Part shown: piece by piece, positions 18,281-38,860 of the stretch
How positions within the stretch are numbered: the first letter of the stretch is position 1
How the letters are laid out: each line of letters begins with the position of its first letter
From: a virus
Taxonomy: Duplodnaviria > Heunggongvirae > Uroviricota > Caudoviricetes
Strand: one strand, 5' to 3'
Length of the DNA: 64,000 nt
IMG/VR virus record: IMGVR_UViG_3300017938_000005
Position numbers and translations under genes: made by a program
Notes under the pieces: model-generated
What the model was told of the DNA's origin: nothing
The model's database searches: none
What the model saw: only the letters and a program-made list of their open reading frames with translations

Positions 18281-18796
18281 TCACGAGACCACCTCGTAGA
18301 CGCGATCGTAGAAGACGCGTCCGCGCTTGTCTTCGTACTGTTCCCATCCGCCCATCGCGTCTTTCACTTCGCGCACGCCAGCAGATGCCGCGATGGCCCG
18401 TTCAGACGGCCGCGGGCTATTTCGTGAAATGCCGAAAGACTCGCTTATCTCGGGCGTTCGCAAGAGCACGATGCCTTTGGGCAGCACGCGCAGGTCCCAT
18501 CCGGCCTTTTTGAAGCCCAGCCACTCGTCCCACGCTTCCCAGTCCTCGAGCCAGCGCCGGAGATCGCGCGTTTTGCCAGCCGGGAGTGACTCGATCGCGT
18601 CGAGCACCGCGTCGCCGAGCGGACGGCCCGCCTCGAGTCCGCGATCCACTTCGCGGCACGCCTCGGTGCCGCATTCGGCGAGGCGCTTCATCATGATGTC
18701 CTCGAAGCTCACCGCGTGCTCCTTCTCTACCGCTTGCCGAAGATCATTTTCGGCTTCGACCCGGAGTCGATCTTGAATGCTTTGCTCGCGACCCAC
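18281..18796 (-). CDS. member 1 of a 3-member paralogous family (AIESLPxxKTRxLRxW motif), unknown function
   Basis: DAVLDAIESLPAGKTRDLRRWLEDWEAWDEW matches motifs in 37812..38360 and 38375..38860. Confidence 0.55.
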   Translation of the reverse strand: MGREQSIQDRLRVEAENDLRQAVEKEHAVSFEDIMMKRLAECGTEACREVDRGLEAGRPLGDAVLDAIESLPAGKTRDLRRWLEDWEAWDEWLGFKKAGWDLRVLPKGIVLLRTPEISESFGISRNSPRPSERAIAASAGVREVKDAMGGWEQYEDKRGRVFYDRVYEVVS

Positions 18797-19179
18797 TCGT
18801 CACCGAGTTCGACGGTGATCGCTTTGGCGGCCCGCGCGCGCGTCCAGCCCGGTACGTCTTTGAAGGTGGGATCCTCGAAATTCAAGATGCCCCACCGGCG
18901 AAGCTCTTCTTCGCCTCCGCGGATCTCGCCGCGCGCGTCCCAGTAGCGGCCAAACCCTCGATGGGCGGGATAGAGCACGGCGGCGTGGCCGACGGGGCTG
19001 CCGCGCTCGAGCATGTACTCGTTCAGGCCTGCGATGTAGCGACCCTCGCCGCCGAAGACGCGCCGGTTGATCTCGATCGCTGCGAGGCCACACTCGCCGT
19101 CGAAACCGTGAAGATTGAGCGCAAGGATCTCCCGCTCGAACTTCCGTCTCTCCGTGTCGGTCATCGCTTGCATCGTCAT
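18727..19179 (-). CDS. hypothetical protein
   Basis: balanced composition. Confidence 0.45.
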   Translation of the reverse strand: MTMQAMTDTERRKFEREILALNLHGFDGECGLAAIEINRRVFGGEGRYIAGLNEYMLERGSPVGHAAVLYPAHRGFGRYWDARGEIRGGEEELRRWGILNFEDPTFKDVPGWTRARAAKAITVELGDEWVASKAFKIDSGSKPKMIFGKR

Positions 19180-19181
19180 GG

Positions 19182-19610
19182 CTATTCGAACCTCGGCACG
19201 AGTAAACTGAAACCCTCAACGGACAAGAGCCCCGTCTTTGCGGGGTTCGGGTCGTGCACGACCTCGTGCCCGCGCGCAAGGACAGCATGTGACCGCCCGC
19301 GCGGCGACAGGCCGGCGCGGATGTGGAGGACGCCGGGCGGAACCGTGAGCTTCGCACCCGGCGCGCTCGTCGAATGGAGACGGTAGATCCCCTCCCGAAC
19401 AGGCTCGTACACGGGCGGGTCGACGAGGAAGTGTAGACCATAGAGCCCGAAGGGCTCGAGCCACCTGTCGAGCCGGAGCGTCCAGACGTAGTCGGGTTCA
19501 CCGGGAATGTAGAACGTCGGAACCGCTTCGATGGGAAGCTCGAGGAGCGACGCGACACACGCGGAGAAGCAGTTGCCGTCCTTGTAGCCGAAGTGGTTTT
19601 GGTCAACCGG
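19182..19610 (-). CDS. putative papain-like cysteine peptidase; start uncertain
   Basis: QNHFGYKDGNCFSACVASLLEL (Gln/Cys) and later GHEVVHDPN (His/Asp); N-terminal part of ORF 19182..19823 is Arg-rich and overlaps 19613..19897. Confidence 0.35.
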   Translation of the reverse strand, partial: PVDQNHFGYKDGNCFSACVASLLELPIEAVPTFYIPGEPDYVWTLRLDRWLEPFGLYGLHFLVDPPVYEPVREGIYRLHSTSAPGAKLTVPPGVLHIRAGLSPRGRSHAVLARGHEVVHDPNPAKTGLLSVEGFSLLVPRFE

Positions 19611-19612
19611 GA

Positions 19613-19897
19613 TCAAGCCTTCTTCTCCAACTCGTCGTGGATAGCGATTCCCTTTGGGGGCCCTGCGGCACCATCGTTCACGGCGGGACGAAGCAGGAGC
19701 CCAACCGGATGCCCCGATCTCAGAGGGATGAGACGCGATTCGACGCCGGCAACGTTCCATTCGGAACCGTCGGAGAGGCGCCGATAAACGTCGCCTGTTT
19801 TCGGCTCTGGGCCACCAGCCCACTCGAAAAGCGCGAGCTGGGCGTCACGTCCTTTGATCTGGATGACATCGAGGATACGAACCGTCACGCCTTCCAA
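19613..19897 (-). CDS. hypothetical protein
   Basis: MEGVTVRILDVIQIKGRDAQLALFEW... Confidence 0.45.
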   Translation of the reverse strand: MEGVTVRILDVIQIKGRDAQLALFEWAGGPEPKTGDVYRRLSDGSEWNVAGVESRLIPLRSGHPVGLLLRPAVNDGAAGPPKGIAIHDELEKKA

Positions 19898-19921
19898 TAT
19901 ACCGGCAGGGCGCTCGCCCGA

Positions 19922-20130
19922 CTAGCGTGCCGCTTTCGCCGTGGCGCGTACCTCGTCTCTGAATCTCTCGCGCGCCTTTCGGACGCAACGCGGCTCACCT
20001 TGGAGTGGGAGTCGGCCGAGCGGGCCCCATGCGAACCACTTGCCGTAGTCTGCCAAGAATTTGTGACGCCCGCACGGGCAGTCCGATCCCGCGATGCTCA
20101 CGATCGGCTTCGCTCTTTTCTGCGTCATCA
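19922..20130 (-). CDS. hypothetical small protein (MTQKRAKPIVSIAGSDCPCGRHK...)
   Basis: internal Met; ATGA overlap with the 20128 gene. Confidence 0.35.
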
Positions 20131-20427
20131 GGATTCCTCGTTTCCGTCGATCGAGGCGATCGGTGTGACGACGGCGTGCTCGGACTCGGGTTCGCCGCTC
20201 GAGACTTTCTTTTCGATGCGATCGATGGCCTCGAGGAGCGCGATGCCGATCCCCTTCGTCACGTTGAGCTTGTCCACTGGGATGCCGGTTCGCTGGGCGA
20301 GCATCTCCTTCACCTTCGTCGCCGTGAGCGCGGGACGGACGATCACGTCGACCCCGCAATTCGGGCAGCGCACGTGGGTCACGCGCAGGTGAGCACTGTT
20401 CGCGTGGAGCTTCTTCTCTTCTTTCAT
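20128..20427 (-). CDS. hypothetical protein with CPNCG zinc ribbon
   Basis: balanced composition. Confidence 0.5.
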   Translation of the reverse strand: MKEEKKLHANSAHLRVTHVRCPNCGVDVIVRPALTATKVKEMLAQRTGIPVDKLNVTKGIGIALLEAIDRIEKKVSSGEPESEHAVVTPIASIDGNEES

Positions 20428-20792
20428 GGCTTGACTCTGTACCCCTGACCCTTTTCAGGATCGAACGCGATCTCGTAGCGCTTCGTGCTGTGCGCCCAAC
20501 CGTCGACGGGCTCGTTCTTCGAGAGCGCCTCGCCAGAGCGAATGGCGCGGACGAGGTCCTTCATCATCTTTTCCACGTTCGCCGCGCTCCAGTCTTCGGC
20601 AGGCATCGCGTGATTGGATGTAAAGGCGTACGTGCGGTTGTACCAGTACCACTCCATCCATCCAGCCACACGTTCGCGTTCCTTTGTGAGGACTCTCTCC
20701 ATCCAACGCTTGCGTGCTGCGGCTGCGGCCTTGCGACGCTTCGCGGCTTCCGCGCGCTCCTCATGGGAGAGAAATTTCTTTTTCTTCTTCAC
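20424..20792 (-). CDS. hypothetical protein with Lys-rich N-terminus
   Basis: MKKKKKFLSHEERAEAAKRRK... Confidence 0.5.
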   Translation of the reverse strand: MKKKKKFLSHEERAEAAKRRKAAAAARKRWMERVLTKERERVAGWMEWYWYNRTYAFTSNHAMPAEDWSAANVEKMMKDLVRAIRSGEALSKNEPVDGWAHSTKRYEIAFDPEKGQGYRVKP

Positions 20793-22216
20793 GGCAGTCC
20801 CTTTGGCTTCGGCACGACGCTCGTCAGCGTCCCTCCAAAGTGCTCGAGGATCTCGTTGATGAGGATCCGGTCTTCGTCACGCAGCTTCTCGAGGTTCGCG
20901 AGGGCGACGGGTTCGTCTGCCGGCTCTTTCTTCGCCTCCTCCTTCTCTGCCTCGAGAAACGCGACGCGCGCTTCGTGAGCCTGCTGCTCGAGTCTCTCGG
21001 GCCGCTTCTCGAAGCCCTCAGGAATCTTTCCGTCATCATCGGGACGCCCTTCGCCCCAGATGAGATCCGCAGTCTTCGGCCAGCGCCCCGTCTGCGCGTA
21101 GAGCGCGATGCATGTTTTCCAAGCATCACCTCCGGGTTCCGGGTACGTGCGCTCCGCGTAGGGCACGAAGCTTCCACCAAAACCTCCTCCGCCGAAACCG
21201 CCGCCCGAACCGCCGAAGCCCGACGGCACCTCGAATGCGATGGGCGCGCCGACAGCGCGCATCTTCTTCGGCGGCGCGGTTTTACGCTTGCGCGATTCGA
21301 GGATGAAGGCTTTCACGGCTTGCTTCAGGTTCTTGCACTTGGGCAGATCGGTGAAACGCCTCGAGTGCGTGATCTCACGACCGAGGTCCACGATCGTGAA
21401 CGTCCCTTGAACAGGCCCGCGGGCCCATCGCGCGAGCGAGAGCGATCCGATCTGGATGGACTTATTCGCGAGGTCGCTCTGCGGCGCCGGGTCGGGAGGC
21501 AGGTTCGCGAGCCGATCGCGCTTGTCACGATGAAGCGCGATCATCGCGTGGATGGAGCGCTGCACGTTCTTTGACTTGTAGACTTCCTTGCCCATGATGG
21601 CGGACGTGCGGGGAGCCGCGATCTCTTCCTTGAACACGCTCCTCTCCTCGTCCTCGGGCGGGTCCATCGCGGGCCTCGACCAATCGATCACCTTGAATTG
21701 GCCCTTCAAGTCACGCACGACCTGGAAGTCGCCGAGCCGGATGGGCTTGCCGCTCCTGTCGACGAGCGGCGGGATGACCTTGCCCCCGAATGATCCGCCA
21801 CCCCTCTTCGTCGTCGGTGCGTCGATCTGCTGTCCGCGACCATCGCGCCACGCACGAAAATCCCGCGGCTGCGCGCGAACGTACTTCTTGTAGCCGGGCA
21901 AGAGCGCCTGCTCGGGCGGCGCGGCGCGCTTCGGCTCCTCCGGCGGGAGACCGTCGGCGATCTCAGCCAAAATATCCCCATGGCAACGCTCGGGTTTGCA
22001 CCAGCACCCGAGCACCTTGCCCTTCAACTCCGTCGAGATCGCGGCGAGAAGATCCGGCCGACCGAGCACGTACGAGCGGTACAGATCGATCACCTCGTCG
22101 CGCGTGCCGTCCTGCCCGATCTTGAAAGGGTTGCCCCACTTCGAGGGGCGCGCGATGGAGACGTCGTAAGTGTCGACCCCGAGGTGCACGACGCGCGTCC
22201 TCTTGATTTCCACGAA
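20789..22216 (-). CDS. DUF4326-domain protein with Gly-rich linker and C-terminal extension; start near 22216 assumed
   Basis: HLGVDTYDVSIARPSKWGNPF...GCWCKPERCHGD (DUF4326-like); GFGGSGGGFGGGGFGGSF linker; N-terminal 95 aa of the ORF is Arg-rich and overlaps 22222..22455. Confidence 0.5.
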   Translation of the reverse strand, partial: FVEIKRTRVVHLGVDTYDVSIARPSKWGNPFKIGQDGTRDEVIDLYRSYVLGRPDLLAAISTELKGKVLGCWCKPERCHGDILAEIADGLPPEEPKRAAPPEQALLPGYKKYVRAQPRDFRAWRDGRGQQIDAPTTKRGGGSFGGKVIPPLVDRSGKPIRLGDFQVVRDLKGQFKVIDWSRPAMDPPEDEERSVFKEEIAAPRTSAIMGKEVYKSKNVQRSIHAMIALHRDKRDRLANLPPDPAPQSDLANKSIQIGSLSLARWARGPVQGTFTIVDLGREITHSRRFTDLPKCKNLKQAVKAFILESRKRKTAPPKKMRAVGAPIAFEVPSGFGGSGGGFGGGGFGGSFVPYAERTYPEPGGDAWKTCIALYAQTGRWPKTADLIWGEGRPDDDGKIPEGFEKRPERLEQQAHEARVAFLEAEKEEAKKEPADEPVALANLEKLRDEDRILINEILEHFGGTLTSVVPKPKGLP

Positions 22217-22221
22217 CGTTC

Positions 22222-22455
22222 TCACTTCTTCGGAAACGGCGGGGGCGGTACGCCGCCGTGTTCTTCGATCACCAGCTCGCGCCAGCGTTGCAGCTCGCCG
22301 ATGATTCCGCCGAGGATCTCGCGTTTCACGCCGACGGTGTCCAGCGGGCTCTCCATGCACGCGAGAAGAAGTTCCTGGAGCTGCTCGGTCGTCGCCGGCT
22401 CGAACTCGGCGTTCATGCCCTCGTAGTCGAACCACATCTTGCCCATGCGCTTCAT
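22222..22455 (-). CDS. hypothetical protein
   Basis: MKRMGKMWFDYEGMNAEFEPATTEQLQELLLA... Confidence 0.5.
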   Translation of the reverse strand: MKRMGKMWFDYEGMNAEFEPATTEQLQELLLACMESPLDTVGVKREILGGIIGELQRWRELVIEEHGGVPPPPFPKK

Positions 22456-22757
22456 GATGTCTTTTTCCCGATGCGGTCTTGAAGCGCATCGATGTGGCCC
22501 AGGATCTCATGCATGACGCTGTTCGAGATCCCGCGCTGTTCGTTCCCTCGAGCGACGTCGCGCATGTGCTCGAGTCGTTCTTCTGTCATCCGCTGGCCGT
22601 CCGGCAGACCTTCGAGGGCGTCGATGTGGCCGACGCATTCGGAGAGGGCAGAGCGGCGTCCGAGCTTGCCGTCGTCCACACGGGCCTCCTTGCGCAGTTG
22701 GGCCAAGCGATCGGGCGTCATCAATCCGTAGATGTTTTTCATCATCGCCGATTCCAT
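22452..22757 (-). CDS. hypothetical protein with internal GHIDAL repeat
   Basis: SECVGHIDALEGLPDGQ... and MHEILGHIDALQDRI. Confidence 0.45.
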   Translation of the reverse strand: MESAMMKNIYGLMTPDRLAQLRKEARVDDGKLGRRSALSECVGHIDALEGLPDGQRMTEERLEHMRDVARGNEQRGISNSVMHEILGHIDALQDRIGKKTS

Positions 22758-23043
22758 GCTTTGGGGAGCGGGCCGCCGCGCACGATCCACTCGTCGATGT
22801 TGCCGATCGCGGTCGCGATGAAATTCGTGACGGTTGGCGTTGCCTCTTCACGCAGCGCGCGACGAAGACGCGAAAGCTCCTCGTTCACGTCGAACTGATC
22901 GAAATCGCGGTGCGCATCGTCATCCGCGTAGGAGCGAGTGGAGGCGAGGAGGACGGGACGGCTCTCTGCTGCGTCCAGCTCGGTCGTGGATGCATTGTAG
23001 GAGCAACCTTGTTCGGGGGACTCGGGTGCAGTGTGACGCGTCA
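22742..23043 (-). CDS. hypothetical acidic protein (MTRHTAPESPEQG...)
   Basis: protein-like C-terminal part of an otherwise Arg-rich ORF. Confidence 0.3.
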
Positions 23044-23058
23044 TGTCGATCCTTTCGT

Positions 23059-23496
23059 TCACGAGTGCGTCTGGATAGGCTTCAAACGCGGCTGCGACTT
23101 CGGGAACACGGCGTCCACGCCTGCCTTCTTGACGATCGCGTCGACGTCTTGATCGTTGCACGCGACGAGGGCTCTGCCGGGCAGCATGCCCTCGACCTTG
23201 CACTTGGCGGCCTGGAGCGCGCGCCGGATCTTGCCGTAGTTCTCGGTGTGCGGCTCCGGGTAGTCGAGCCCGATCTTGTACTCGAACGCCCGCGAGATCA
23301 CGCGGCTCGCGTGGAGGCGATCGTCTTTCTTGCCGGGGGCCGCTTCGACGACGTCGTCGATGTTGAGGAGATCCGTGAGCGGGACGTTCGTGATGCGGAC
23401 GAGCATCGGCTTCTTCCCTTTCGGAAGCTCCACGACCGTGCCCCAGCCCGTCTCGCCCGGTTCGTAGACGAGCTTGATCGAGTCGCCGACTTTCAT
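23059..23496 (-). CDS. hypothetical protein (MKVGDSIKLVYEPGETGWGTVVEL...)
   Basis: internal Met; upstream part is Arg-rich. Confidence 0.45.
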   Translation of the reverse strand: MKVGDSIKLVYEPGETGWGTVVELPKGKKPMLVRITNVPLTDLLNIDDVVEAAPGKKDDRLHASRVISRAFEYKIGLDYPEPHTENYGKIRRALQAAKCKVEGMLPGRALVACNDQDVDAIVKKAGVDAVFPKSQPRLKPIQTHS

Positions 23497-23762
23497 TGCA
23501 CCGCTCCAAGAGTTCCGAGGTTCTTCTTGTACATGTCGTAGTACGCCCCAAAAACGCCGAGCAGCTCGTCCTTTGGGATCCCGTTTGAGGCGCATCCGCT
23601 CGCGCAGAAGAGCATGAGCGCTGTGAGGGCGAGTTCGTGTTCTATGCCTTCCGCCGCGGCTTCTTCGAGCCACGCGCGGAGGCCCTCGCGAAGGCGCTCG
23701 AGCTTCTTGTCCTGCTCGGGCGTCGTCGCCTGCACCTCGATCGTTTTCTTGTGCTCATCCAT
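23493..23762 (-). CDS. hypothetical protein
   Basis: 4-nt overlap chain. Confidence 0.5.
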   Translation of the reverse strand: MDEHKKTIEVQATTPEQDKKLERLREGLRAWLEEAAAEGIEHELALTALMLFCASGCASNGIPKDELLGVFGAYYDMYKKNLGTLGAVQ

Positions 23763-23765
23763 CGC

Positions 23766-24083
23766 TCACCTCGTTTTCGCTTTTTGCCAGCGATGGCTAC
23801 GATTCTCGCGACCGTTCGCGAGGTAATCGCGTGCGACGCGGATCTGGTTCTCCCAGTAGGTGATGAACTCGAGGACGGCTTCCTCGGTCGCATGGGCGCC
23901 TTCCTCGCGACCGCTCTCGCGCGACTGAAATCCGAGGAAGTAGATCCGTTCTTCCATGCGATCCAAGGCCATGAGTTGATCGAAACCGATCTCGCGTACG
24001 AAGTTCAGCGTCTTGTCTTGCCGCGAGTCCATGAACTTTTCGATCTCGTCGTTCTCGTTGCGCTTCTCTTCGCTCATCGTCAC
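23766..24083 (-). CDS. hypothetical protein
   Basis: balanced composition. Confidence 0.5.
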   Translation of the reverse strand: MTMSEEKRNENDEIEKFMDSRQDKTLNFVREIGFDQLMALDRMEERIYFLGFQSRESGREEGAHATEEAVLEFITYWENQIRVARDYLANGRENRSHRWQKAKTR

Positions 24084-24310
24084 CCTCCTTCGCTCTTCTT
24101 GATCCGACCCCCGAAGGCCTTGTAGCCCGACCCTCCAGCCACGGCGCCGCGGATCGCGTTGAGCTTGTCACGAAGCTCGACGAGGTCATCCATGTGGACA
24201 TCGCCGTGCGCGTCGCGATCGTGAAGAAGCTTCGCGCAGAGCGACAAGACGTCGTCCAGAAGCTCGCCGGCCTCTTCGTCCGTGAGCTTTCGCTTCGGAC
24301 TCGGACTCAC
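24080..24310 (-). CDS. hypothetical protein
   Basis: ATGA overlap chain with the radical SAM gene. Confidence 0.5.
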   Translation of the reverse strand: MSPSPKRKLTDEEAGELLDDVLSLCAKLLHDRDAHGDVHMDDLVELRDKLNAIRGAVAGGSGYKAFGGRIKKSEGG

Positions 24311-25746
24311 GACGCGCCGTAGCTGCCGAACGCTTCGAGGATCGTGCCTTCATCGAACTTCTTGACGCGCCTCATCGCGAGATCGTCCACGTAGCTCGAG
24401 GGACCGACCTTCATGTCGACCGCGTCGAGGTACATGCTGAAGGCGCCCTCGCGCGTCGCGTAGAGCCGGCGCGAGATGCCTGCCTTGTCGAGCGCGGCGC
24501 CGCTCTCCGCGGCGAGCGCGGTGTCGATGCCGATGTTCACGTAGACACGCTCCGCACGAACCTTCTCGATCATCTCGAGCCAGCCGTCGTACTTCTCCGG
24601 CTTGAACGACGAGCCGCGGCCGGTCGTCTTGTAGCCGAGGAGCGTGAGGCGGATGTTCGAGTGCGCGCACTCGCGCACGATCTGTTCGAGCACGTAAAGA
24701 GACGAGGAACCCATCACGTACTGCACGGACGCGAGATTGTCGTCGATGTCGTTCGCCTCGAGGAGCGCCGCGAGCTTCCGGACGTCCTTGGCCGTGTCCA
24801 CCGAGTAGGCGAAGCCGCCGATGAGCTTCGTGATCTTCGGCCAGAGCGAACCGTCGCGGAGCCACGCGAGGTTCTTCGTCGTGAAATTCGGCGTGATGCC
24901 GCTACGATGGAAGGTTTCGAGGATCTCGACGAACTTCGGGTGCATCGTCGGCTCGCCGCCGCCGATCGCGACCTCGAAGACCTTCATCTTCGCGAGCGCG
25001 TAGGCCGCGCCCGAGATCGCTTGCGCGTCGCCGTGCTTGCCCGCGTGCGTCGAGTCCTGGTAGCAGAACGCGCAGCCGTACGGGCAGAAGTCGGTGATCT
25101 TGAGGTCGACGAGTTCGGGAGCCGAGGCTTTCGTCACCTCGCGCGTTTTGCTGGGTTCGTCGAACGAGAATCGAATCTTCGTGCCGTCGGCGCGGCTGAA
25201 GATCGTCCAGTATTTGCCGGCCACATCTTTTCGCGCGACGTACTCGCCGCCGCCGTCTTGCTGGAGCGGGAGCGAGAAACCGCCCTCATCGAGAGGGTGA
25301 GTCTCGTCGGTGTTGTCGTTGCCTCCGAGGATGGCGACGTCGTCACGCATGAAGAACGCGAGGAAATCGTCGAAGAATTCCTTGTCGACGCCCTTGCCGT
25401 CCCACGAGCGCGGCAGGACGTAGAGGCTCTGGTGGTCCACGTAGCCCTCTGGACCTTTGCCATTGTAGGCATATTGACCCTCGGGCGTGCGCGTCGCGCC
25501 CTTGACCCACGAGTCGACGGCGGCCATGGCGACGTCCTCTCCGACTTGGGACTGGAGCGCGGTGAAGAGGTGGATCGCGACGTACTGACGCTTGGCCTCC
25601 GGAGACGCGGCCGTGAAGAAGTTCCACCCGAACTCGCCGCCGTCCGTCTCCGAGTCCCGGACGTGCTGGCCGGGCTTGAGGAAGATGATCGAGTGCGTGG
25701 AGCTACTGTTCGTGGCGAAGCCGAGGCGGACGTTGTGGATGCGCAT
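24307..25746 (-). CDS. radical SAM enzyme with about 220-aa N-terminal extension
   Basis: DFCPYGCAFCYQ CxxxCxxC cluster motif; GGGEPTMHP SAM-binding motif. Confidence 0.8.
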   Translation of the reverse strand: MRIHNVRLGFATNSSSTHSIIFLKPGQHVRDSETDGGEFGWNFFTAASPEAKRQYVAIHLFTALQSQVGEDVAMAAVDSWVKGATRTPEGQYAYNGKGPEGYVDHQSLYVLPRSWDGKGVDKEFFDDFLAFFMRDDVAILGGNDNTDETHPLDEGGFSLPLQQDGGGEYVARKDVAGKYWTIFSRADGTKIRFSFDEPSKTREVTKASAPELVDLKITDFCPYGCAFCYQDSTHAGKHGDAQAISGAAYALAKMKVFEVAIGGGEPTMHPKFVEILETFHRSGITPNFTTKNLAWLRDGSLWPKITKLIGGFAYSVDTAKDVRKLAALLEANDIDDNLASVQYVMGSSSLYVLEQIVRECAHSNIRLTLLGYKTTGRGSSFKPEKYDGWLEMIEKVRAERVYVNIGIDTALAAESGAALDKAGISRRLYATREGAFSMYLDAVDMKVGPSSYVDDLAMRRVKKFDEGTILEAFGSYGAS

Positions 25747-25806
25747 GTTCTTTTCCTTCAGAGAGACTCACTCGCTCGCCGCGCGATTCCTGACACGTGC
25801 GAGCGA

Positions 25807-26046
25807 TCATACGTCGATTGGTCGTAATCCGCTAGAATCACTCTCTGCTCCTGACGTGTAGAGACGGCGAAGAGCTTCGATCCATCGGCCGCGCCGCGTG
25901 ACGTTGCTCCGGATGAACTTCGCATGGCAATCCCAGCAAAGGTGCATGTCCGTCTCTGGCAAGTGCCACGTCGTGTGCGTTGGCTCATCGCAGAAGTCGC
26001 AGACGTCGGGGTCGACACCGATGAGCAGGATCGCCACGGTAGCGAT
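25807..26046 (-). CDS. small zinc-binding protein (CDFCDE...CWDCH)
   Basis: internal Met MIATVAILLIGVDPDVCDFC... Confidence 0.4.
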   Translation of the reverse strand: MATVAILLIGVDPDVCDFCDEPTHTTWHLPETDMHLCWDCHAKFIRSNVTRRGRWIEALRRLYTSGAESDSSGLRPIDV

Positions 26047-28100: not shown

Positions 28101-28103
28101 TTT

Positions 28104-28298: not shown

Positions 28299-28364
28299 CG
28301 TCTTTATCCTCGCGCACGAGCTTGCCGTTCACTTCATGAACGAACGTCCTCGGCCGCTCCTCGC

Positions 28365-28553: not shown

Positions 28554-28573
28554 CGCTATTTCTTCCCTTCCAT

Positions 28574-29029: not shown

Positions 29030-29042
29030 CGCTTCTTCTTTC

Positions 29043-29651: not shown

Positions 29652-29666
29652 GTAACTTTATGACCC

Positions 29667-31074: not shown

Positions 31075-31187
31075 CGATTCTTCGAAACTTCGAAACTTCG
31101 AAACTTCGTCTTGATGGATACGCCGATCTGCATTATGTCCGTTCTGCTGCGCGGCGCGCCGCCGCGTGATCGAAAGGGTGGCAGACC

Positions 31188-33800
31188 ATGGCGGAAAAAG
31201 ACGACTCGCGCGAACTCGTATTGGCCCCGAACGAGAGCGCGCTGATCCTCGACAAGACCAACGGGCAAGTCTTCCTCTACGTCGGCCCGAAGCAGGACTC
31301 GCTCGCGCCGAGCGTGCAGCCCGTCGTCTTCAGCGACAAGACGAAGATGTTCGAGCGCGTCGACCTCGCGCGTGCCGTGCAGCGCGTGACGATCGCGCCC
31401 GAGGGCTGGTACGCCGTCCTCAAGAACCCCGCGAAGAACGGTGGGCACCCGCAGCCCGGCAACAAGGCCGCGATGCCCGAACTCGAGACGGGCAGGAAGG
31501 TCATCATCCCGGGCCCGACGAGCTTCGCGCTCTGGCCCGGCCAAATGGCTAAAGTCCTACCGGGACACCGCCTCCGTTCGAATCAATATTTGATCGTCCG
31601 TGTGTACGATCAAACCGCCGCGCGCGAGAACTGGAAAAACGCGACGATCGAGCAGAGGGATCCCTCCACGACGGGCGCCGAAGCGGAGGTCCCGAAAGAC
31701 CAGTCCACCGAGGTCGACGCGAGCAAGCTCACGACGGGCCAGCTCATCGTCATCCGCGGCACCGACACGTCGTTCTTCATCCCGCCGACAGGCATCGAGG
31801 TCGTTTCCTACAAGGACGATGCGGGCGAGGAGAAGCTCGTGCGCGACGCCTGCTCCCTCGAAAAACTCGACTACGCGATGCTTTTGGATGAATCCGGCGC
31901 GAAGCGTTTTGTTCGCGGGCCAGCGGTCGTGTTCCCCGAACCGACGGAGGTCTTCGCGACCAAAGAAGAGAACAACAAGACGACGCGAAAGTTCCGCGGC
32001 ATCGAGCTGAACGAGACGAGCGGCATCTACGTCAAGGTGATCGCGGACTACAAGGACGAGTCGGGCGATCACAAGGCCGGCGACGAGCTGTTCATCACGG
32101 GCGTGCAAGAGAAGATCTACTTCCCGCGCGAGGAGCACGCGATCATCCGGTACGGCGAGCAAGAGGTCCACTACGCGACGGCGATCCCCGCCGGCGAGGG
32201 CCGCTACGTGCTCGACCGCCTGAAGGGCGAGGTACGCACGATCAAGGGGCCGGCGATGTCGCTCCCCGACCCGCGCAGCGAGGTCTTCGTGAGGCGCGTC
32301 CTCGATCTGAAGCTCTGCGAGCTTCTCTACCCGGGCAACGCCGACGCGCTCGCGCACAACCAGAAGCTTGGCGCGTCGATCGCCGCCGAGGAAGCCGCGG
32401 TGGGCGCCGCCATCACGCGCACGAGCGCGCTGCGCGGCAAGGCGCTCCTCGGCGCGGCGGCCGCCATGTCGCCGGGCTCCGCGACCATGGACGCGCTCTA
32501 CCTGAACGAATCCTCGCTCTCGAACTCGCTCGAGGATCGCGGCCTCGGGCAGCTCGCGGCCACGGGCTTCACCGGCGACGGCTTCGATCGCAAGGGCCGC
32601 TACACCGAGCCCCGCACCATCACGCTCAACACCAAGTACCAAGGCGTCATCACGACGGACATCTGGACCGGGTACGCCATCAAGCTCGTGAAGCGCGACG
32701 GCAGCCAGCGCGTCGAGGTCGGGCCCAAGAGCGTCATGTTCGATTACGACGAGGTCCCGCAGGTCCTCAAGCTCTCGACGGGCAAGCCGAAGAACGCGGA
32801 CAACCTCTATCGCACGGCTTACCTCCAGGTGAAGGGCAACAAGGTCTCCGACGTCGTGGAAATCGAGACCGGCGATTACTGCAAGTTGAACCTCAAGCTC
32901 TCCTACCGCGTCGATTTCGAGGGCGATCCGAGCCATTGGTTTGATCTCGAAAACTACGTGAAGTGGCTCTGCGACCACATGCGTTCGCGCCTCAAAGCGT
33001 CGTGCAAGAAGCTCGGCGTCGAAGAGTTCTACCGCTCCGCGATCGAGCACGTGCGCGACTCCGTCGTCGGGCCGAAGCCCGAAAACGGTTCGCCACGCCC
33101 GGGCACGTCGTTCGCCGAGAACGGCATGCGCGTCTACGACGTCGAGGTCCTCGAGGTGAAGTTCCTCGACCCCTCCGTGGAGCAGCTCCTCGTCAAAGCG
33201 CAGCGCGAGTCGATCACGCAGGCGCTCGAGATCGGCGCGCAGCGCCGCTCGCTCGAGTTCACGCGCGAGTCGTCGAACATCTCCCAGGAGATCGAACACA
33301 CGAAGACGACGACGCGCTTCGCGCTCCTCGCGCTGAAGGAGCAGGAGATCCAGCGCCAGCTCCACCACGACGTCGCCGCGGTGCAGGCGCGCGTCACCGC
33401 CGAGACCGAGATGCACAAGGCCACGCTCCAAAGGGAGAACGCGGAAGGCGAGGTCCAGAAGCTCACGCTCGAACGCACGCGCGTCGCGGCCGAGCAGTCG
33501 CTCTCGTTCGACAAGGAGCGCCAGGCGATGCGCCTCGCGGAAGTCACGGCCGAAGTCGAAGCCGTCGTCAAGAAGGCGGGAGCCATCCAGCCCGGCCTCA
33601 TCGAAGCCATCAACGCGTTCGGCGAGCGCGCCCTCATCGAGAAGCTCGCGTCGTCGATGTCGCCGCTCGCGATCCTCGGCGGCGAGAGCGTGACCGACGT
33701 CGTCAAGCGCCTCCTCGAAGGGACGAAGCTCGCGCAGTTCATCGGCAACGCGCCGGCGAACGGCGCGACGTCCTCGAAGGTCCTGCCGGCATCGCAGTAA
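31188..33800 (+). CDS. major vault protein (MVP) homolog, 870 aa
   Basis: N-terminal beta repeats of about 55 aa; shoulder-like VSDVVEIETGDYCKLNLKLSYRVDFE...WFDLENYVKWLCDHMRSRLKASCKKLGVEEFYRSAIEHVRDSVVG aligning with rat MVP [22 protein letters not shown]...RIIRTAVFG; C-terminal coiled coil ending EAINAFGERALIEKLASSMSPLAILGG. Confidence 0.85.
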   Translation: MAEKDDSRELVLAPNESALILDKTNGQVFLYVGPKQDSLAPSVQPVVFSDKTKMFERVDLARAVQRVTIAPEGWYAVLKNPAKNGGHPQPGNKAAMPELETGRKVIIPGPTSFALWPGQMAKVLPGHRLRSNQYLIVRVYDQTAARENWKNATIEQRDPSTTGAEAEVPKDQSTEVDASKLTTGQLIVIRGTDTSFFIPPTGIEVVSYKDDAGEEKLVRDACSLEKLDYAMLLDESGAKRFVRGPAVVFPEPTEVFATKEENNKTTRKFRGIELNETSGIYVKVIADYKDESGDHKAGDELFITGVQEKIYFPREEHAIIRYGEQEVHYATAIPAGEGRYVLDRLKGEVRTIKGPAMSLPDPRSEVFVRRVLDLKLCELLYPGNADALAHNQKLGASIAAEEAAVGAAITRTSALRGKALLGAAAAMSPGSATMDALYLNESSLSNSLEDRGLGQLAATGFTGDGFDRKGRYTEPRTITLNTKYQGVITTDIWTGYAIKLVKRDGSQRVEVGPKSVMFDYDEVPQVLKLSTGKPKNADNLYRTAYLQVKGNKVSDVVEIETGDYCKLNLKLSYRVDFEGDPSHWFDLENYVKWLCDHMRSRLKASCKKLGVEEFYRSAIEHVRDSVVGPKPENGSPRPGTSFAENGMRVYDVEVLEVKFLDPSVEQLLVKAQRESITQALEIGAQRRSLEFTRESSNISQEIEHTKTTTRFALLALKEQEIQRQLHHDVAAVQARVTAETEMHKATLQRENAEGEVQKLTLERTRVAAEQSLSFDKERQAMRLAEVTAEVEAVVKKAGAIQPGLIEAINAFGERALIEKLASSMSPLAILGGESVTDVVKRLLEGTKLAQFIGNAPANGATSSKVLPASQ

Positions 33801-34019
33801 ATGCCCCGAACCACGGATGTGATGCTCGAGGTCTGGGAGACGTCGGGCATCAAGGTCTACGGCGACGACGGCGCCTTCCACAACACGGACGTGGTCGAAG
33901 TCCATTTCGTCTTCGACCACGTCACCGTGAAAGTGGACTACGACGATGCGAAACAGATTCATGACAAGCTCGGCTCGCTGCTCGCGGACGTCGCGAAGAT
34001 GAAGTACCGGTGCCCGTGA
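33801..34019 (+). CDS. small conserved protein directly after MVP; paralog of 56063..56290
   Basis: MPRTTDVMLEVWETSGIKVYGDDGAFHNTDVV...DDAKQIHDKLGSLLADVAKMKYRCP vs MPGPSIDVSLEVWETAGVKLYDDDGAFHNTKVL...NDAKKLHEKLSALLADAAKMKYKSP. Confidence 0.55.
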   Translation: MPRTTDVMLEVWETSGIKVYGDDGAFHNTDVVEVHFVFDHVTVKVDYDDAKQIHDKLGSLLADVAKMKYRCP

Positions 34020-34327
34020 GCCGCAGCCATGACGCCTACGAAGACGCGATGCAGAGCGTGCTTCACATCCTCCACGCGCACGGTCTGCTCGCGAGGGACG
34101 GCAGCTCCGACTCCGTCCGGATCGCCGTGAGCCGTCTTCGGGAGACGAACAGGCAGCTCAAAAAAGAAATCGACGACCATCCCTGCGATCAAACGGTTGT
34201 CCACGGCTTCGAGAACCGTGTCTTTCGTTGCACGAGGCGCGCCGGGCATAGCGGGGAGCACGAAGCGATCGTCTGCTGGGCAGACGCCATCATCGGAACG
34301 TCGATCGAAGAAAAGGAAAAAGCATGA
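34010..34327 (+). CDS. hypothetical protein
   Basis: balanced composition. Confidence 0.45.
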   Translation: MPVSRSHDAYEDAMQSVLHILHAHGLLARDGSSDSVRIAVSRLRETNRQLKKEIDDHPCDQTVVHGFENRVFRCTRRAGHSGEHEAIVCWADAIIGTSIEEKEKA

Positions 34328-34602
34328 CGACGACGGCGACGACGACGACGGCGACAACGACAACGCCAATGACCGAAGAGCGGCTCGCCCGCATCGCCGC
34401 GCGCCGCGCGCATCGCCACACGGTCCTTTGCTACGGGTCCTACGAGCCGTGCGGCGAGCATCACGTCCACACGGGACCGCCGAGCGACCCGCCGGAGCGA
34501 TGGTGCGGCGGCAGGAACCTCGACTGCGATCTCCGCTACGATGAGGACATCGCCGACCTCGTCCAAGAGATCCGGCGCCTCCAGAAAGAAGCGAGACCAT
34601 GA
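34324..34602 (+). CDS. hypothetical protein with Thr/Ala-rich N-terminus
   Basis: MTTTATTTTATTTTPMTEE... Confidence 0.45.
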   Translation: MTTTATTTTATTTTPMTEERLARIAARRAHRHTVLCYGSYEPCGEHHVHTGPPSDPPERWCGGRNLDCDLRYDEDIADLVQEIRRLQKEARP

Positions 34603-34820
34603 TCAAGGGCGACGTTCCGGGCGGCAACATGACTTCGGCCGAGGACATCTCCGTCGGGCGGTCGCGCGACGGGACGCTCCTCCTCACGTGGATCGAGACC
34701 CAGTCTGCGACGATCCCGGGCGGCATGCCGTTCCGGATGCGCCATAGCGTCAAGCTCGACGTGAACGACGCCCTTTGGCTCAAGGACGAACTCGCGCGAA
34801 CGCTGCGAGAGATGTCGTGA
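34599..34820 (+). CDS. hypothetical small protein
   Basis: balanced composition. Confidence 0.45.
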   Translation: MIKGDVPGGNMTSAEDISVGRSRDGTLLLTWIETQSATIPGGMPFRMRHSVKLDVNDALWLKDELARTLREMS

Positions 34821-35086
34821 GCGGCCGCTTTTCGCACTCGGAACTCCAACGTCGCGCGAAAGAGTTGACCGGGATCTGTTTGATGTGCGTCCGTGAGCGC
34901 CACGGTCCACCGCGCGAAGCACTGACACGCATGGAAGACGAAGCTCCCGAATACTACGAAGAGATGCGTGAAGAGATGACCAACGACATCGTCGAAGCGT
35001 TCGAAGCTCTCCTCGAAGGCAGGAATTGGCGTCCCGAGGAGCAGCGCGAAGTCCCCTTGTTTCATGGGTCGGCGCGGCGAAAATGA
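34817..35086 (+). CDS. hypothetical protein (GTG start overlapping upstream stop)
   Basis: VSGRFSHSELQRRAKELTGICLMC... Confidence 0.4.
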   Translation: MSGRFSHSELQRRAKELTGICLMCVRERHGPPREALTRMEDEAPEYYEEMREEMTNDIVEAFEALLEGRNWRPEEQREVPLFHGSARRK

Positions 35087-35259
35087 GCGTGAAGTCCAAA
35101 CCTGAATCCGAGCACGCCGAATGGGCACATTTTCATTCGTACTGGGGATGGATCTGCCGCGAGTGTGAAGCTGCTGAAGGATGGGCGAAGCTCGACGGCC
35201 GCGACCATGGACGCGGGTGCTTGAAACAGCCCATCGTTTTTGGCAAGACCAAGAAATGA
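35083..35259 (+). CDS. hypothetical small Trp/Cys-rich protein
   Basis: MSVKSKPESEHAEWAHFHSYWGWICRECE... Confidence 0.35.
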   Translation: MSVKSKPESEHAEWAHFHSYWGWICRECEAAEGWAKLDGRDHGRGCLKQPIVFGKTKK

Positions 35260-35483
35260 AACCTTGCTGGCGCGACCACGGTCTGACGGAGGAAGGCGCG
35301 CGCATCGCGGACATGCTCGTGGACGACCTCGTCGCGATCTTCAAGAAGTGCCCGCCCGAGATGGAGAAGAGCCTCATCGTCGAGGCCCGCTTCCGCGCGC
35401 GGGAGCTTCCGAAGAAAACCTTCGACTGGCGAGAGCGCTACGAAAAAGACAACGGCATGGGAAGCTGGCGACAAAAGCGATGA
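35256..35483 (+). CDS. hypothetical small protein
   Basis: MKPCWRDHGLTEEGARIADMLVDDL... Confidence 0.4.
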   Translation: MKPCWRDHGLTEEGARIADMLVDDLVAIFKKCPPEMEKSLIVEARFRARELPKKTFDWRERYEKDNGMGSWRQKR

Positions 35484-35752
35484 GCCGGCACGCCTTCGAC
35501 CCCGAGTGCCCCGACTGCCGGCCCATCCTGCTCGACCCTCAGACGGGAAAGATTCTGGAGGAAAGCGATCCCGTGATGCAGGCCGTCATCGCCGTGTGGC
35601 GTGCCTCTCCTCGCGCGGACCAGGAAGCCTTCCACGCGTTCACCGTGAAGAACTCCCGCGAGCCCGGTGTTCTCGAACGCATGATGGCGCTCTCGAAACG
35701 CATGGAGCAAGCCGTGAGCGCGGCTCCGAAAACCCCGAAAGCCTCGTCCTAG
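35480..35752 (+). CDS. hypothetical small protein
   Basis: MSRHAFDPECPDCRPILLDPQTGK... Confidence 0.4.
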   Translation: MSRHAFDPECPDCRPILLDPQTGKILEESDPVMQAVIAVWRASPRADQEAFHAFTVKNSREPGVLERMMALSKRMEQAVSAAPKTPKASS

Positions 35753-35753
35753 A

Positions 35754-36143
35754 TCAGAGAATCTTCTCGGGGTACTCGATTGAGTCGCCGATGCGGACAC
35801 CGATCTCGTGTGTCGTCGTATTGGACCCTTCGTCATGGACGGACTTGATGTACGGGTAGACGTCGTCGGTACCCGCGTTTCGAAGCTCCGCGATGCGCCA
35901 GCAGGCGAAGCTCTTGCCGTCGCCCCCAGTCGCGATGATCGCTGGGATGTCCTTCCACGACTCCGAGCGCACCTTTTTCAAGGGGCTCACGCTGGCGAAG
36001 TCGTACATCGCAGGCGTTGCAGGATTCTCGATGAGGTAGTTCCAGTTGCAGACGACGAGAGCCTCGAGCGCCGCTCGGAGGACGATCGCTTTCCGCGTCG
36101 CGGGGAGCCTGCGAAAGCCGACCAAATCAAATTCGATTTTCAT
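35754..36143 (-). CDS. hypothetical protein (possible Cys-His hydrolase)
   Basis: GKSFACWRIAEL ... SVHDEG. Confidence 0.4.
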   Translation of the reverse strand: MKIEFDLVGFRRLPATRKAIVLRAALEALVVCNWNYLIENPATPAMYDFASVSPLKKVRSESWKDIPAIIATGGDGKSFACWRIAELRNAGTDDVYPYIKSVHDEGSNTTTHEIGVRIGDSIEYPEKIL

Positions 36144-36158
36144 GATCTCACCTTCATT

Positions 36159-36452
36159 TCATCGGTAGTGGTTTCGAACAATGCGATCCAGCTCCTCGGC
36201 GCTCATGCCGCGGATGTCGACCCAGAGCGAGAGCCCTCCTTCATCATGGATCGCTTGCGCGGTAAACGTGAGCTTGTGCGGGCCGCTCCTCGAATGACGA
36301 CTCCCGAAGAGGAGGTACGGATACTTCAAGACGCTCCCGCGGTTGTACGTCACGGCTTCGTAGCCGTCCGAGACGCCGGTCTGCGGGAACTTGCGCGGCA
36401 TCTCTTCGAGGAGCCTCGCCTGCGCCATCGCGTACGTCTCCTTCTTCCCCAC
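36159..36452 (-). CDS. hypothetical protein
   Basis: balanced composition. Confidence 0.45.
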   Translation of the reverse strand: MGKKETYAMAQARLLEEMPRKFPQTGVSDGYEAVTYNRGSVLKYPYLLFGSRHSRSGPHKLTFTAQAIHDEGGLSLWVDIRGMSAEELDRIVRNHYR

Positions 36453-36455
36453 GGC

Positions 36456-36713
36456 TCACTCCTCGAGCAGCGCGAACCGCGTGCGGCTTCCGCCGAGGTT
36501 CGAGTTGCACGCGTCGCACTTGCGCCACGTGAAGTCCCGGATGCCCTCGCCCGTGTCCGAGTCGAAGTTCGGCACGAGGTTCGGGCCGAGCGCGTTCACG
36601 CCCTTGACCACCTCTCGCTCGCGCTTGTCGCCCTCGATGCCGGACGTGTCGCCGTTCGCCGCGTAGATCGTGCAGTCGTCGCAGAGCCACAAATCGTCGT
36701 CGATGACCTTCAT
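36456..36713 (-). CDS. small Cys-containing protein (MKVIDDDLWLCDDCTIYAANG...)
   Basis: internal Met. Confidence 0.4.
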   Translation of the reverse strand: MKVIDDDLWLCDDCTIYAANGDTSGIEGDKREREVVKGVNALGPNLVPNFDSDTGEGIRDFTWRKCDACNSNLGGSRTRFALLEE

Positions 36714-37105
36714 TTCGATGCCCCTTCCACGAGCATTCCAAGCGCGCCCCAGAGGACGGCATGCTTCAAGTCGATGCATCCCGTGAGCGGCTTCTTGCAG
36801 CCGTGCTTCGAATAGTCCCACGAGCACGCGCCGAGCGCGTCGCGATCGAACCAGCACCCGGCGAGTTCGATCCCGGAGAGCGCCGCGGCGTAGATCGCCG
36901 CGCGCCCGAAGAAGCCCACGACACGGATGTGCGGCGCGATGGCTTGCACCGCGAGGCCGCCGGCCGCGTAGACCGGGAGCACGGGCACCGCGATGCCGCC
37001 GAAGAGCGCCGAGTACCGCGGTCCGAAGAGCGTGTTCTCGACGATGAAGCCACCAACACCAAAAGCGGTGGCGCGAACGGCGAGGCTCGAGGACGTGGAC
37101 TTCAT
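36710..37105 (-). CDS. hypothetical membrane protein
   Basis: Gly/Ala-rich hydrophobic segments. Confidence 0.45.
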   Translation of the reverse strand: MKSTSSSLAVRATAFGVGGFIVENTLFGPRYSALFGGIAVPVLPVYAAGGLAVQAIAPHIRVVGFFGRAAIYAAALSGIELAGCWFDRDALGACSWDYSKHGCKKPLTGCIDLKHAVLWGALGMLVEGASK

Positions 37106-37115
37106 CGCGAAGGGC

Positions 37116-37322
37116 TCAGCGGACCGGGTGCTTGACGGCCACGCCGTCCGAGATCACGGGCGACGCTTTCGGCGCGGGAGGACTCGCGATTCGCGCGTGC
37201 GGACGCGGCGCGGCCGTCTTCACGCCGCGTCCAGGTTCGAGGGGAAGCAGCTCGGGAGCTGTTTGACCCTTCGCGAGCTGAAGGGTGATGCCGCCGTTGT
37301 AGAGCGGTCCGACGAACTGCAT
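37116..37322 (-). CDS. hypothetical small protein (MQFVGPLYNGGITLQLAKGQ...)
   Basis: protein-like C-terminal part of an Arg-rich ORF. Confidence 0.3.
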   Translation of the reverse strand: MQFVGPLYNGGITLQLAKGQTAPELLPLEPGRGVKTAAPRPHARIASPPAPKASPVISDGVAVKHPVR

Positions 37323-37359
37323 GATGGGTACCTCTTGCCTTTCTATGAGGAGCGTCCTT

Positions 37360-37815
37360 TTACGGACTGCGGTGAGCTTCGAGAAAGGATACCGCCTCCT
37401 CCACGCTCCGTACAGTCGCGGTGGGGATCCCCCAGTAATCGGCCAGCTGCCTCCAAGCCTTCTGCGCTGCCCGCTCCTTGTCGCCGTCCGCGCGCTTGCA
37501 TTCGAGGCCGAAGAAGCGACCCCTGCGATCGGGAAAGATGCCGAGGATGTCCGGGCACCCCGTACCGAGCGCCGGCAAGAAGGGTGGCCACCCGCGCGCC
37601 GCGCGTTCCTCGCGCGCCTCCTCCGAGACGTCATAGATCGCGACGCGACCCGACCACGTCTTGCATCCGAGCTTCTCGAGCACCGTCCGGATGCGATCGA
37701 CGAGATCCTTTTCGAGCGGCACCACAAGCTCGCGCGGCATCTCGCTCTCCGCGAACATCCGGAGCTGCTCCATCTTTCGCTTCGGCTGCTTCAGGCGCTT
37801 GAGCGAAATTTTCAT
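37360..37815 (-). CDS. VRR-NUC domain nuclease
   Basis: GCPDILGIFPDRRGRFFGLECKRADGDKERAAQKAWRQL. Confidence 0.6.
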   Translation of the reverse strand: MKISLKRLKQPKRKMEQLRMFAESEMPRELVVPLEKDLVDRIRTVLEKLGCKTWSGRVAIYDVSEEAREERAARGWPPFLPALGTGCPDILGIFPDRRGRFFGLECKRADGDKERAAQKAWRQLADYWGIPTATVRSVEEAVSFLEAHRSP

Positions 37816-38360
37816 TCGCGCGTCTTCACGCGCAGGTTCACGCACGCGCGCTGGAGGAGCATCGTTTCTCGCTTCGTGCGGTAGGGGTCGAGGAGGATCA
37901 ATTCCGCCTCATGAAGGACCTTTTTGTTGTCAGTGCTGAACTCGCCATACGCCCAGAGATCCCGCGGACCGAGCGCGTCAATTTCTTCTTCCGCGATGAC
38001 TTCGTCCTCGGGACCGCCCTTGGTCAAACGCAAGCCCACGTACGTACCGCTCCTGAAGAACTTCACGTAGGCATAGACGCGACTTGTCTGCGCCTCGCTC
38101 ACCCAGGCCCGGAGCTTCCTCGTCTTCTGCGAGGGAAGCGACTCGATCGCGTCGACGATGGCATCGCCCAAGTCGCGACCCTCCTCCATCGACCGCAAGA
38201 CTTCTCTCGAAGCTTCGTCCCGTGCATCTTCGAGGCGTGCAAGCATGAACGCCGAGAACGCGCTCGCCGGATCGCCTTCATCGAGGAGACATGCGGGCTC
38301 GTCGATCGGCTCGGGGTCAACGAAGAAGTCCTTGTCGATCCGAACGAGCTTGCGCGTCAT
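37812..38360 (-). CDS. paralogous family member 2 (AIESLP motif)
   Basis: DAIVDAIESLPSQKTRKLRAWVSE. Confidence 0.55.
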   Translation of the reverse strand: MTRKLVRIDKDFFVDPEPIDEPACLLDEGDPASAFSAFMLARLEDARDEASREVLRSMEEGRDLGDAIVDAIESLPSQKTRKLRAWVSEAQTSRVYAYVKFFRSGTYVGLRLTKGGPEDEVIAEEEIDALGPRDLWAYGEFSTDNKKVLHEAELILLDPYRTKRETMLLQRACVNLRVKTRE

Positions 38361-38374
38361 CGACCTTCTCCTCC

Positions 38375-38860
38375 TCAGAGAATCTTTCCGACGTAGTACA
38401 CCGCCGCGATGGCTTGCGGCCCGATGTGGGGCTTCTGGTAGCTCGCCGAGTCTCGACTCGTCGCAGCCGCGATCAATTCTTCGTCGGGGAAGAGGTCGCG
38501 CTCTTTCGCCTTGTCGCCTTTCGTCTCTTCAACCTTGAGCCACCAATCTTCTTCGATGTCGTCGGGCACGACGACTGCGACGTGACTCTCGTCCCACTTC
38601 TGGAGGCGCCAACCTTTCTGCTCCCAGTCTTCTTTCCACTCGCACCACGGTTCGAACAGCTCGACGAGGCGCCGGAGGCGCGTGGTCTTCCGTGTCGGGA
38701 GCGATTCGATCGCGAGCGCGACCGCGTTCGCCAGGGAAGGATGTCCTTCCCTCTCGAGGTCGCGAGCGAGCTTGTAGATCTCTTCCGATGCTTCGGTGTG
38801 GGTCGAGTACATCCACTCGCGGATGTACTCTTCGAAGCTCAGCGCGTCCCGGCATGCCAT
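38375..38860 (-). CDS. paralogous family member 3 (AIESLP motif), tandem with member 2
   Basis: NAVALAIESLPTRKTTRLRRLVELFEPWCEWKEDWE. Confidence 0.55.
   Translation of the reverse strand: MACRDALSFEEYIREWMYSTHTEASEEIYKLARDLEREGHPSLANAVALAIESLPTRKTTRLRRLVELFEPWCEWKEDWEQKGWRLQKWDESHVAVVVPDDIEEDWWLKVEETKGDKAKERDLFPDEELIAAATSRDSASYQKPHIGPQAIAAVYYVGKIL

Follow-up and report, generated by a model that had tools for sequence, protein, structure and literature searches.

Do three small minus-strand genes with a common AIESLPxxKT motif, found in a 64,000-nucleotide stretch of DNA from a virus of the Caudoviricetes (IMG/VR record IMGVR_UViG_3300017938_000005, the whole stretch being called the window hereafter), form one protein family, and what could such a family do for a phage? 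Comparison of the genes, named p1, p2 and p3, with their relatives indicates one undescribed, phage-restricted protein family that is new to the curated libraries searched. In its members an N-terminal module of about 65 residues, conserved and built of four helices, is fused to a C-terminal alpha/beta module that diverges between subfamilies.

Three genes of one family

The genes and their parts are located as follows.

18281..18712, minus strand: p1, subfamily A, 143 aa, GTG start at 18712 with Shine-Dalgarno site, AlphaFold model
18515..18712, minus strand: N-terminal four-helix module of p1, about residues 1-66, with the CxxxxC typical of subfamily A and a Trp-rich helix 4
18551..18613, minus strand: signature motif of p1, DAVLDAIESLPAGKTRDLRRW (helix 3, LP turn and start of helix 4)
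18284..18514, minus strand: C-terminal alpha/beta module of p1, of the 'GGWEQ(Y/F)' type as in P0002 and P0009
38375..38860, minus strand: p3, subfamily B, 161 aa, directly upstream of p2
38666..38728, minus strand: signature motif of p3, NAVALAIESLPTRKTTRLRRL
37812..38360, minus strand: p2, subfamily C, 182 aa, ATG start, Shine-Dalgarno site GGAGGAG
38103..38165, minus strand: signature motif of p2, DAIVDAIESLPSQKTRKLRAW

A preliminary description of the window had listed three minus-strand open reading frames (ORFs), at 18281..18796, 37812..38360 and 38375..38860, and they are present there; the boundary of p1 at 18796 had to be corrected. A start at 18796 overlaps the upstream gene, and the true start is most likely the GTG at 18712, which has the Shine-Dalgarno sequence AGAAGGAG 6 nt upstream and the stop codon of the preceding gene immediately before it. 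This start agrees with the public gene call P0001 and with the MSFED... starts of orthologues.

All three proteins carry the motif on which the preliminary description had built the family, except that p3 departs from it at its two ends, where N replaces the first D and L the last W. Pairwise alignment by BLASTP, proposed there as a check, revealed homology over 58-95 residues: 49% identity over 65 aa for p1/p2 (E 3e-17), 39% over 95 aa for p1/p3 (E 1e-11) and 38% over 58 aa for p2/p3 (E 3e-6). Without the 21-residue motif the identities are still ~39% (p1/p2), ~32% (p1/p3) and ~28% (p2/p3), thus the similarity is domain-wide, and the values lie above the 20% outside the motif below which the resemblance was to be regarded as chance.

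The window has a GC content of 62%, and spurious ORFs overlap throughout it in every frame, so that chance similarity or GC-driven non-coding ORFs had to be considered. The probability of this explanation is negligible in view of pairwise E values down to 3e-17, dozens of external homologues and the coding features of the genes. The three genes have a G+C content of 0.74-0.79 at third (GC3) and 0.41-0.45 at second codon positions (GC2), which is the coding signature of this genome. In a comparison with the orthologous block of p3, p2 and the following nuclease gene on the related contigs L052 and L053, the ratio of nonsynonymous to synonymous substitution rates (dN/dS) was 0.16 for p3 and 0.10 for p2, with N- and C-terminal halves alike, and on a par with these 0.10 for the nuclease gene adjoining p2. 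Because of the GC3 signature, the dN/dS values, the Shine-Dalgarno sites, the confident folds and the external homologues, p1-p3 are regarded as real genes; they are under ordinary purifying selection, with dN/dS computed for p2 and p3. The proteins start with MSFED..., MACRD... and MTRKL... and lack a hydrophobic leader. Signal peptides, transmembrane segments and lipoboxes were not seen in the family sequences, which suggests that p1-p3 encode soluble cytoplasmic proteins.

Distribution and subfamilies

Word-indexed searches yielded 13 relatives for p1, nine for p3 and five for p2, all of them on metagenome contigs or contigs of metagenome-assembled genomes (MAGs). When 1.84 billion cluster representatives were searched exhaustively with a profile, 99 clusters were obtained at E<=1e-3, 81 of them at E<=1e-10. 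In the curated libraries Pfam-A, PHROGs v4, NCBIfam 20 and PADLOC 2, p1-p3 had no match better than E 0.07, and the 108 collected family members gave one stray match each in Pfam and PADLOC (E ~3e-4) and otherwise none. An enzymatic domain was not found in any of the 108 members. Neither full-length nor N-module profiles matched PDB sequences (best E 0.019, a designed leucine-rich repeat), and the best E value in BFVD was 0.039. No match was obtained by tblastn with p1 and p2 against GenBank phages or with p1 against PLSDB plasmids, and scans of IMG/VR, GTDB genomes and JGI metagenomes seeded with alignments returned no relative. A degenerate DNA pattern for AIESLPxxKT gave 45 matches, of which seven were true family loci. 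Multi-copy families of modular ORFans in huge phages are, as such, not without precedent.

The alignments define three subfamilies, A (p1-like), B (p3-like) and C (p2-like). Subfamily A has the CxxxxC and a W-x3-W-x2-W-x2-W face on helix 4, proteins of subfamily B start with 'MAC...', and subfamily C includes long forms of 240-283 aa with an extra 'WTKPGLYDF' module. The CxxxxC was considered as a family-wide metal site or disulfide and rejected, both cysteines being Ser or Ala in most members. A DNA mimic of the Ocr/ArdA type was likewise rejected: the isoelectric points in the family range from 4.3 to 10.2 and exceed 8 in 35% of the members.

The multi-copy family proposed in the preliminary description is genuine and restricted to a clade of huge phages, in which the multi-copy and tandem layout recurs. 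For the role in host interaction or anti-defence suggested there, homology, fold and context gave no direct evidence in either direction. The lineage-specific expansion proposed there did not hold as a recent event. Each window copy shares 46-59% full-length identity with orthologues of other phages, more than with its paralogues in the window. Since the orthologues are closer than the paralogues, the three copies are anciently diverged members of three old subfamilies. A search for further copies had also been suggested; with hidden Markov models (HMMs) of the family, one built from the three sequences and one from 54 diverse N-modules, a fourth copy was detected neither in the window nor in the ~8 kb adjoining it on the right (contig L055), a search that left ~190 kb of the ~261-kb genome uncovered.

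Constant N-terminal and variable C-terminal modules

Structure prediction, another of the checks proposed, gave confident AlphaFold2 models from family alignments for p1 (predicted local distance difference test, pLDDT, 90.6; predicted template modelling score, pTM, 0.81) and p2 (pLDDT 87.8, pTM 0.77). The helices of p1 comprise residues 2-12, 16-26, 31-41 and 44-68. Behind them the chain forms a beta hairpin and, after a variable loop, a short helix with the motif P-x4-I-A-A-x-G-V and two long strands. The model of p2 has the same four helices, preceded by an extra N-terminal beta hairpin with a Cys conserved in >=90% and followed by a three-stranded sheet and three helices. The motif had been described as central; in the AlphaFold model it forms the corner of helix 3, turn and helix 4 of the N-terminal domain. 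A convincing counterpart of the confident models was not found among the solved or viral predicted structures searched.

The signature of the N-module reads F-x6-R-L ... E-A-[SC] ... G-R-x-L-x-D-A-[VI]-x-D-A-I-E-x-L-P-x-x-K-T-[RK]-x-L-R-x-W. Best conserved among the 108 members are R51 (99%), A34 (98%), L50 (96%) and T47 (91%), followed by F2, E16, A17, I39, E40, L42 and P43 with 79-89%. Single-linkage BLAST clustering joined 100 N-regions into one group, whereas the C-regions fell into 19 groups.

The start of helix 4, LPxxKTRxLRRW, carries a mean charge of +3.1 and forms a conserved basic patch; together with the 99% conserved Arg and the plentiful RNA-related genes of the window (a tRNA array, Ro60 and an RNA ligase) this could indicate nucleic-acid-binding regulators, in which the basic helix start contacts DNA or RNA and the paralogues regulate transcription or translation through different effector domains. 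The motif also superficially resembles a segment that we take to be typical of region 4.1 of sigma-70, 'L-P-x-x-x-R-x-x-L-x-L-R'. We consider this role unlikely. None of the 108 members (0/108) matched a helix-turn-helix (HTH), sigma-70 region 4 or other nucleic-acid-binding family of Pfam or NCBIfam, helix 4 is a single long helix of 25 residues packed on the C-module and not a recognition helix, and the whole N-module is slightly acidic on average (-1.6). Membership among sigma-70 region 4 or HTH regulators was rejected separately, as neither a recognition helix after L-P-x-x-x-R nor a Pfam match was found.

Copy number and evolution of the two halves

Relatives with enough sequence all have several copies. 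Tandem pairs were found on L001 (a related phage contig from the NCBI MAG GCA_040384205.1), on L054 and on L009/L019, three copies on L006, and at least two copies, apart from each other, on a contig of 218.8 kb. The pair of p3 and p2 is kept in closer relatives, with the tandem orthologues P0015/P0024 being 89% identical.

The tandem copies of L001 and of L054 are ~95% identical over their first ~195-200 nt, and their N-modules are 98% and 100% identical as protein. The identity drops to the background level precisely where helix 4 ends (codons 65-68), and the C-modules within one genome share 33%. Between L001 and L054, the N-modules are 72-73% identical, and the C-modules of the second copies, which are of the 'GDSTGHG' type, 47%. 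Hence N-modules cluster by genome and C-modules by type, as would result from gene conversion confined to the N-module or from an exchange of C-modules anchored on the N-module. The module boundary in the two pairs thus points to gene conversion or module swapping, and in related phages the two halves evolve semi-independently. This domain-limited concerted evolution in relatives is the most notable element of the family. No such homogenisation was observed for the window's own three N-modules, which are 38-49% identical.

A proposed shared dock with variable recognition modules

We tentatively favour, at less than even probability and judging from the architecture, that the family consists of non-enzymatic adaptors or inhibitors with one shared docking module and alternative recognition modules. 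Through the N-module, as a common dock or scaffold, all copies would bind the same partner, a hub of the phage or of the host, and the C-modules would serve as alternative, non-enzymatic recognition modules. The paralogues would then constitute a set that joins one partner to different targets in host takeover or counter-defence, and the three copies of the window would be long-established, individually maintained members of this set. The adaptor function is preferred because of the constant-N/variable-C design, the homogenisation of N-modules within genomes, the lack of a catalytic signature, the small size and the accessory-gene context. The models of p1 and p2, with the same four-helix core and different C-terminal architectures, were counted in its favour.

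Several points weigh against an adaptor function, which is read from the architecture. The orthologues show plain purifying selection, whereas genes engaged in an arms race often diversify under selection. With N-modules so far diverged (38-49% identity), the window copies may no longer bind the same partner. The homogenisation in tandem copies could be a mechanical by-product of gene conversion between neighbouring repeats and functionally meaningless. The conserved polar residues E40, K46, T47 and R51 could be structural, in a helix cap or salt bridge, and not a binding site.

A more specific proposal, which we regard as doubtful, is a 'cassette' system, in which conversion keeps the dock fitted to one co-evolving hub and interchangeable recognition modules neutralise or recruit host factors; the hub would be a packaging or ejection machine, a core enzyme of the host or a phage compartment. 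Such a system, if true, would give huge soil phages a means of counter-defence that parallels polymorphic toxin systems but is non-enzymatic. The adaptor function, if correct, would add a non-enzymatic design of constant dock plus variable head, maintained by gene conversion, to the counter-defence repertoire of phages; if it is wrong, a clean new domain family is still available for the annotation of huge phages from soil and peat. Huge phages have hundreds of unannotated genes, for which multi-copy families are among the few handles. With its defined domain structure, confident models, conserved surface motif and separately evolving halves, the family is a tractable candidate for a new phage-host or phage-phage interaction module.

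Genomic neighbourhood

The family genes sit in non-structural accessory operons, in the company of nucleases, RNA-repair genes and small ORFans. A long array of small ORFans on the minus strand, which includes a radical-SAM enzyme and a DUF4326 protein, ends with p1, and p1 is convergent with a plus-strand gene that has a weak Walker-A match. p3 and p2 lie within a second minus-strand array, next to two annotated genes.

37360-37845, minus strand: PD-(D/E)XK-type endonuclease, 161 aa (phrog_93 endonuclease, E 9e-11; weak Holliday-junction-resolvase match)
36710-37105, minus strand: CmpB-like membrane protein (PF06541, E 6e-9)

The endonuclease gene shares 34 nt with the 3' end of p2 and occupies the same place after p3 and p2 on L052 and L053. 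A constantly adjacent partner gene was not found at the family loci; loose synteny was limited to the CmpB-like protein and one ORFan of 218-293 aa. Scans for sigma-70 promoters and terminators around the genes found nothing. On L001, a 278-aa protein with a response-regulator receiver domain is encoded at 8611-9447 (plus strand), two genes upstream of the tandem family pair.

This context bears on a possible virion location. The family could comprise internal or ejected proteins, the N-module being a capsid- or tail-targeting domain and the C-modules effectors injected with the DNA, comparable to T4 internal proteins or to polymorphic head proteins of the MuF type. The A-I-E tripeptide of the motif, followed by S, presumably fits the S/A/G-x-E rule of prohead proteases of the phiKZ type. 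The multi-copy layout with constant N and variable C mirrors the internal proteins of phage T4 (PMC3012670). Against a packaged role, the N-module is a folded domain of 65 residues with pLDDT >90 and not a short cleavable peptide, the A-I-E sits within helix 3, and no gene for a capsid, portal, tail or protease protein occurs near the copies in the window or on L001, L006 and L054. Large ORFs beside the L001 and L054 pairs also obtained no structural annotation in PHROG scans. Packaging into the virion is rated as improbable.

CmpB-like genes are located 0.2-3.5 kb from family genes at three loci, in the window, on L054 (3433-3849) and on L014 (1924-2427), and a PG_binding_1 (endolysin-like) gene directly precedes the L054 pair, another one being near the L001 pair. 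These surroundings may represent a lysis-related neighbourhood or plain synteny. They are the evidence for assembly- or lysis-associated accessory proteins, either with a chaperone- or terminator-like role or as partners of the neighbouring membrane proteins. A terminator, however, would not be expected to occur as three to several paralogues in one genome, signal peptides and lipoboxes are lacking, and tail genes are not nearby. The neighbourhood link itself may be backbone synteny: on L014 no family gene occupies the syntenic position, and the one present is located elsewhere. A function of this kind is very unlikely; the probability that remains beside the adaptor function and these alternatives belongs to something else.

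The phage and other genes of the window

The tightly packed short genes of the window belong to an uncultured phage that is known from metagenome contigs only. In several metagenomes, the exact sequences of p1, p2 and p3 recur on contigs of 261,519 and 261,538 bp that were assembled independently, and two contigs from JGI samples (L002 and L003) are 99.98% identical to the window. Because of these exact proteins on ~261.5-kb contigs and of the relatives of one large gene in phage records of 462-735 kb, the source is treated, on indirect grounds, as an uncultured huge phage of ~261 kb from soil or peat. A capsid or tail gene was not found inside the window, and among GenBank phages megablast detected no nucleotide match to the 23 kb of the window that were compared. 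The other features are listed below.

87-1250, plus strand: DDE_Tnp_1 transposase with N-terminal SWIM zinc finger (Pfam E 2.5e-21 and 1.2e-6)
7325-8026, minus strand: PLD-like (PLDc_2) protein
10392-17155, plus strand: tRNA array with 34 tRNA genes covering most amino acids (35 tRNAs in the whole window)
16113-16712: HNH endonuclease gene, which interrupts the tRNA array
19182-19823, minus strand: phrog_5845 protein with a 'GNCFSAC...H' pattern
20789-22510, minus strand: 573-aa protein with a DUF4326 domain
24307-25746, minus strand: radical-SAM protein, 479 aa
31188-33800, plus strand: 870-aa ORF, GC3 0.91 (Pfam shoulder domain of the major vault protein, E 1e-25; Vault repeat, E 1.6e-8)
45533-45628, minus strand: lone tRNA-Gly(CCC) of 96 nt, absent from the Rfam gathering list
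56987-57532, minus strand: NUDIX hydrolase
58838-59788, minus strand: RNA ligase
60552-62219, minus strand: Ro60 homologue with TROVE and Ro60-vWA domains (E 2e-33 and 1e-64)

The transposase is apparently encoded by an insertion sequence within the phage genome. The pattern of the phrog_5845 protein suggests by eye a papain-like cysteine peptidase. One ARAGORN tRNA call (14616-14690) has an odd two-base anticodon, with an Rfam tRNA score of 42.4 bits. The Rfam gathering scan of the window detected tRNAs only and no Y-RNA-like gene. The minus-strand genes from 56987 to 62219, with Ro60, RNA ligase and NUDIX hydrolase, look like a cluster for RNA surveillance or repair.

For huge phages, a homologue of the vault protein seems unusual. 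The sole relatives of the 870-aa ORF among GenBank phages are 38-41% identical and reside in LR756500, LR756501 and LR756503, unannotated 'uncultured phage' records of 462-735 kb. In eukaryotes, TROVE domains connect Ro and vault particles, and the presence of Ro60 together with a vault-protein homologue in one genome is therefore intriguing.

Comparison with known systems

A tail terminator or stopper resembling lambda gpU was rejected: scores were at noise level, and the family is multi-copy in a non-structural context. Its conserved part is the helical N-module, which is absent from terminators. A match to the flagellar LP-ring-associated lipoprotein YecR (PDB 7bgl) covers only half of the protein, at 9% sequence identity, and the p2 model does not recover it. 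Unlike YecR, the family lacks a lipoprotein signal peptide with a lipobox Cys and has no match to the Pfam family of YecR.

Polymorphic effectors, such as Rhs/CdiA-CT, the MuF-type phage head toxins and the MIX/FIX effectors of type VI secretion systems, combine a constant N-terminal trafficking domain with variable C-terminal modules. The tandem pairs of L001 and L054 resemble them in the constant N-module, the swappable C-modules, the breakpoints at the junction and the tandem copies. The pattern of a polymorphic cassette, with shared N, unrelated C and a breakpoint at the junction, was found in these pairs and not in the three copies of the window. In contrast to polymorphic effectors, the C-modules comprise only ~70-200 residues, in none of the members was a toxin or enzyme domain found, a conserved adjacent small partner or immunity gene was not detected, and in the library searches the N-module showed no relationship to a known trafficking domain.

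The nearest functional analogy is the set of T4 internal proteins (IPI, IPII, IPIII and the polymorphic ip loci of T-even phages). These proteins share only the capsid-targeting sequence and are otherwise diverse anti-restriction proteins, a set of non-enzymatic inhibitors of host defence nucleases (PMC3012670). The constant element of T4 is a peptide of ~10 residues cut by the prohead protease, whereas a folded four-helix domain of 65 residues is present here; sequence or fold similarity is lacking. A T4-type leader, cleaved by the prohead protease at (L/I)-x-E, was considered and rejected, as no cleavable leader is evident. What the two sets have in common is the design: small proteins in several copies, which share a constant N-terminal element and are otherwise diverse.

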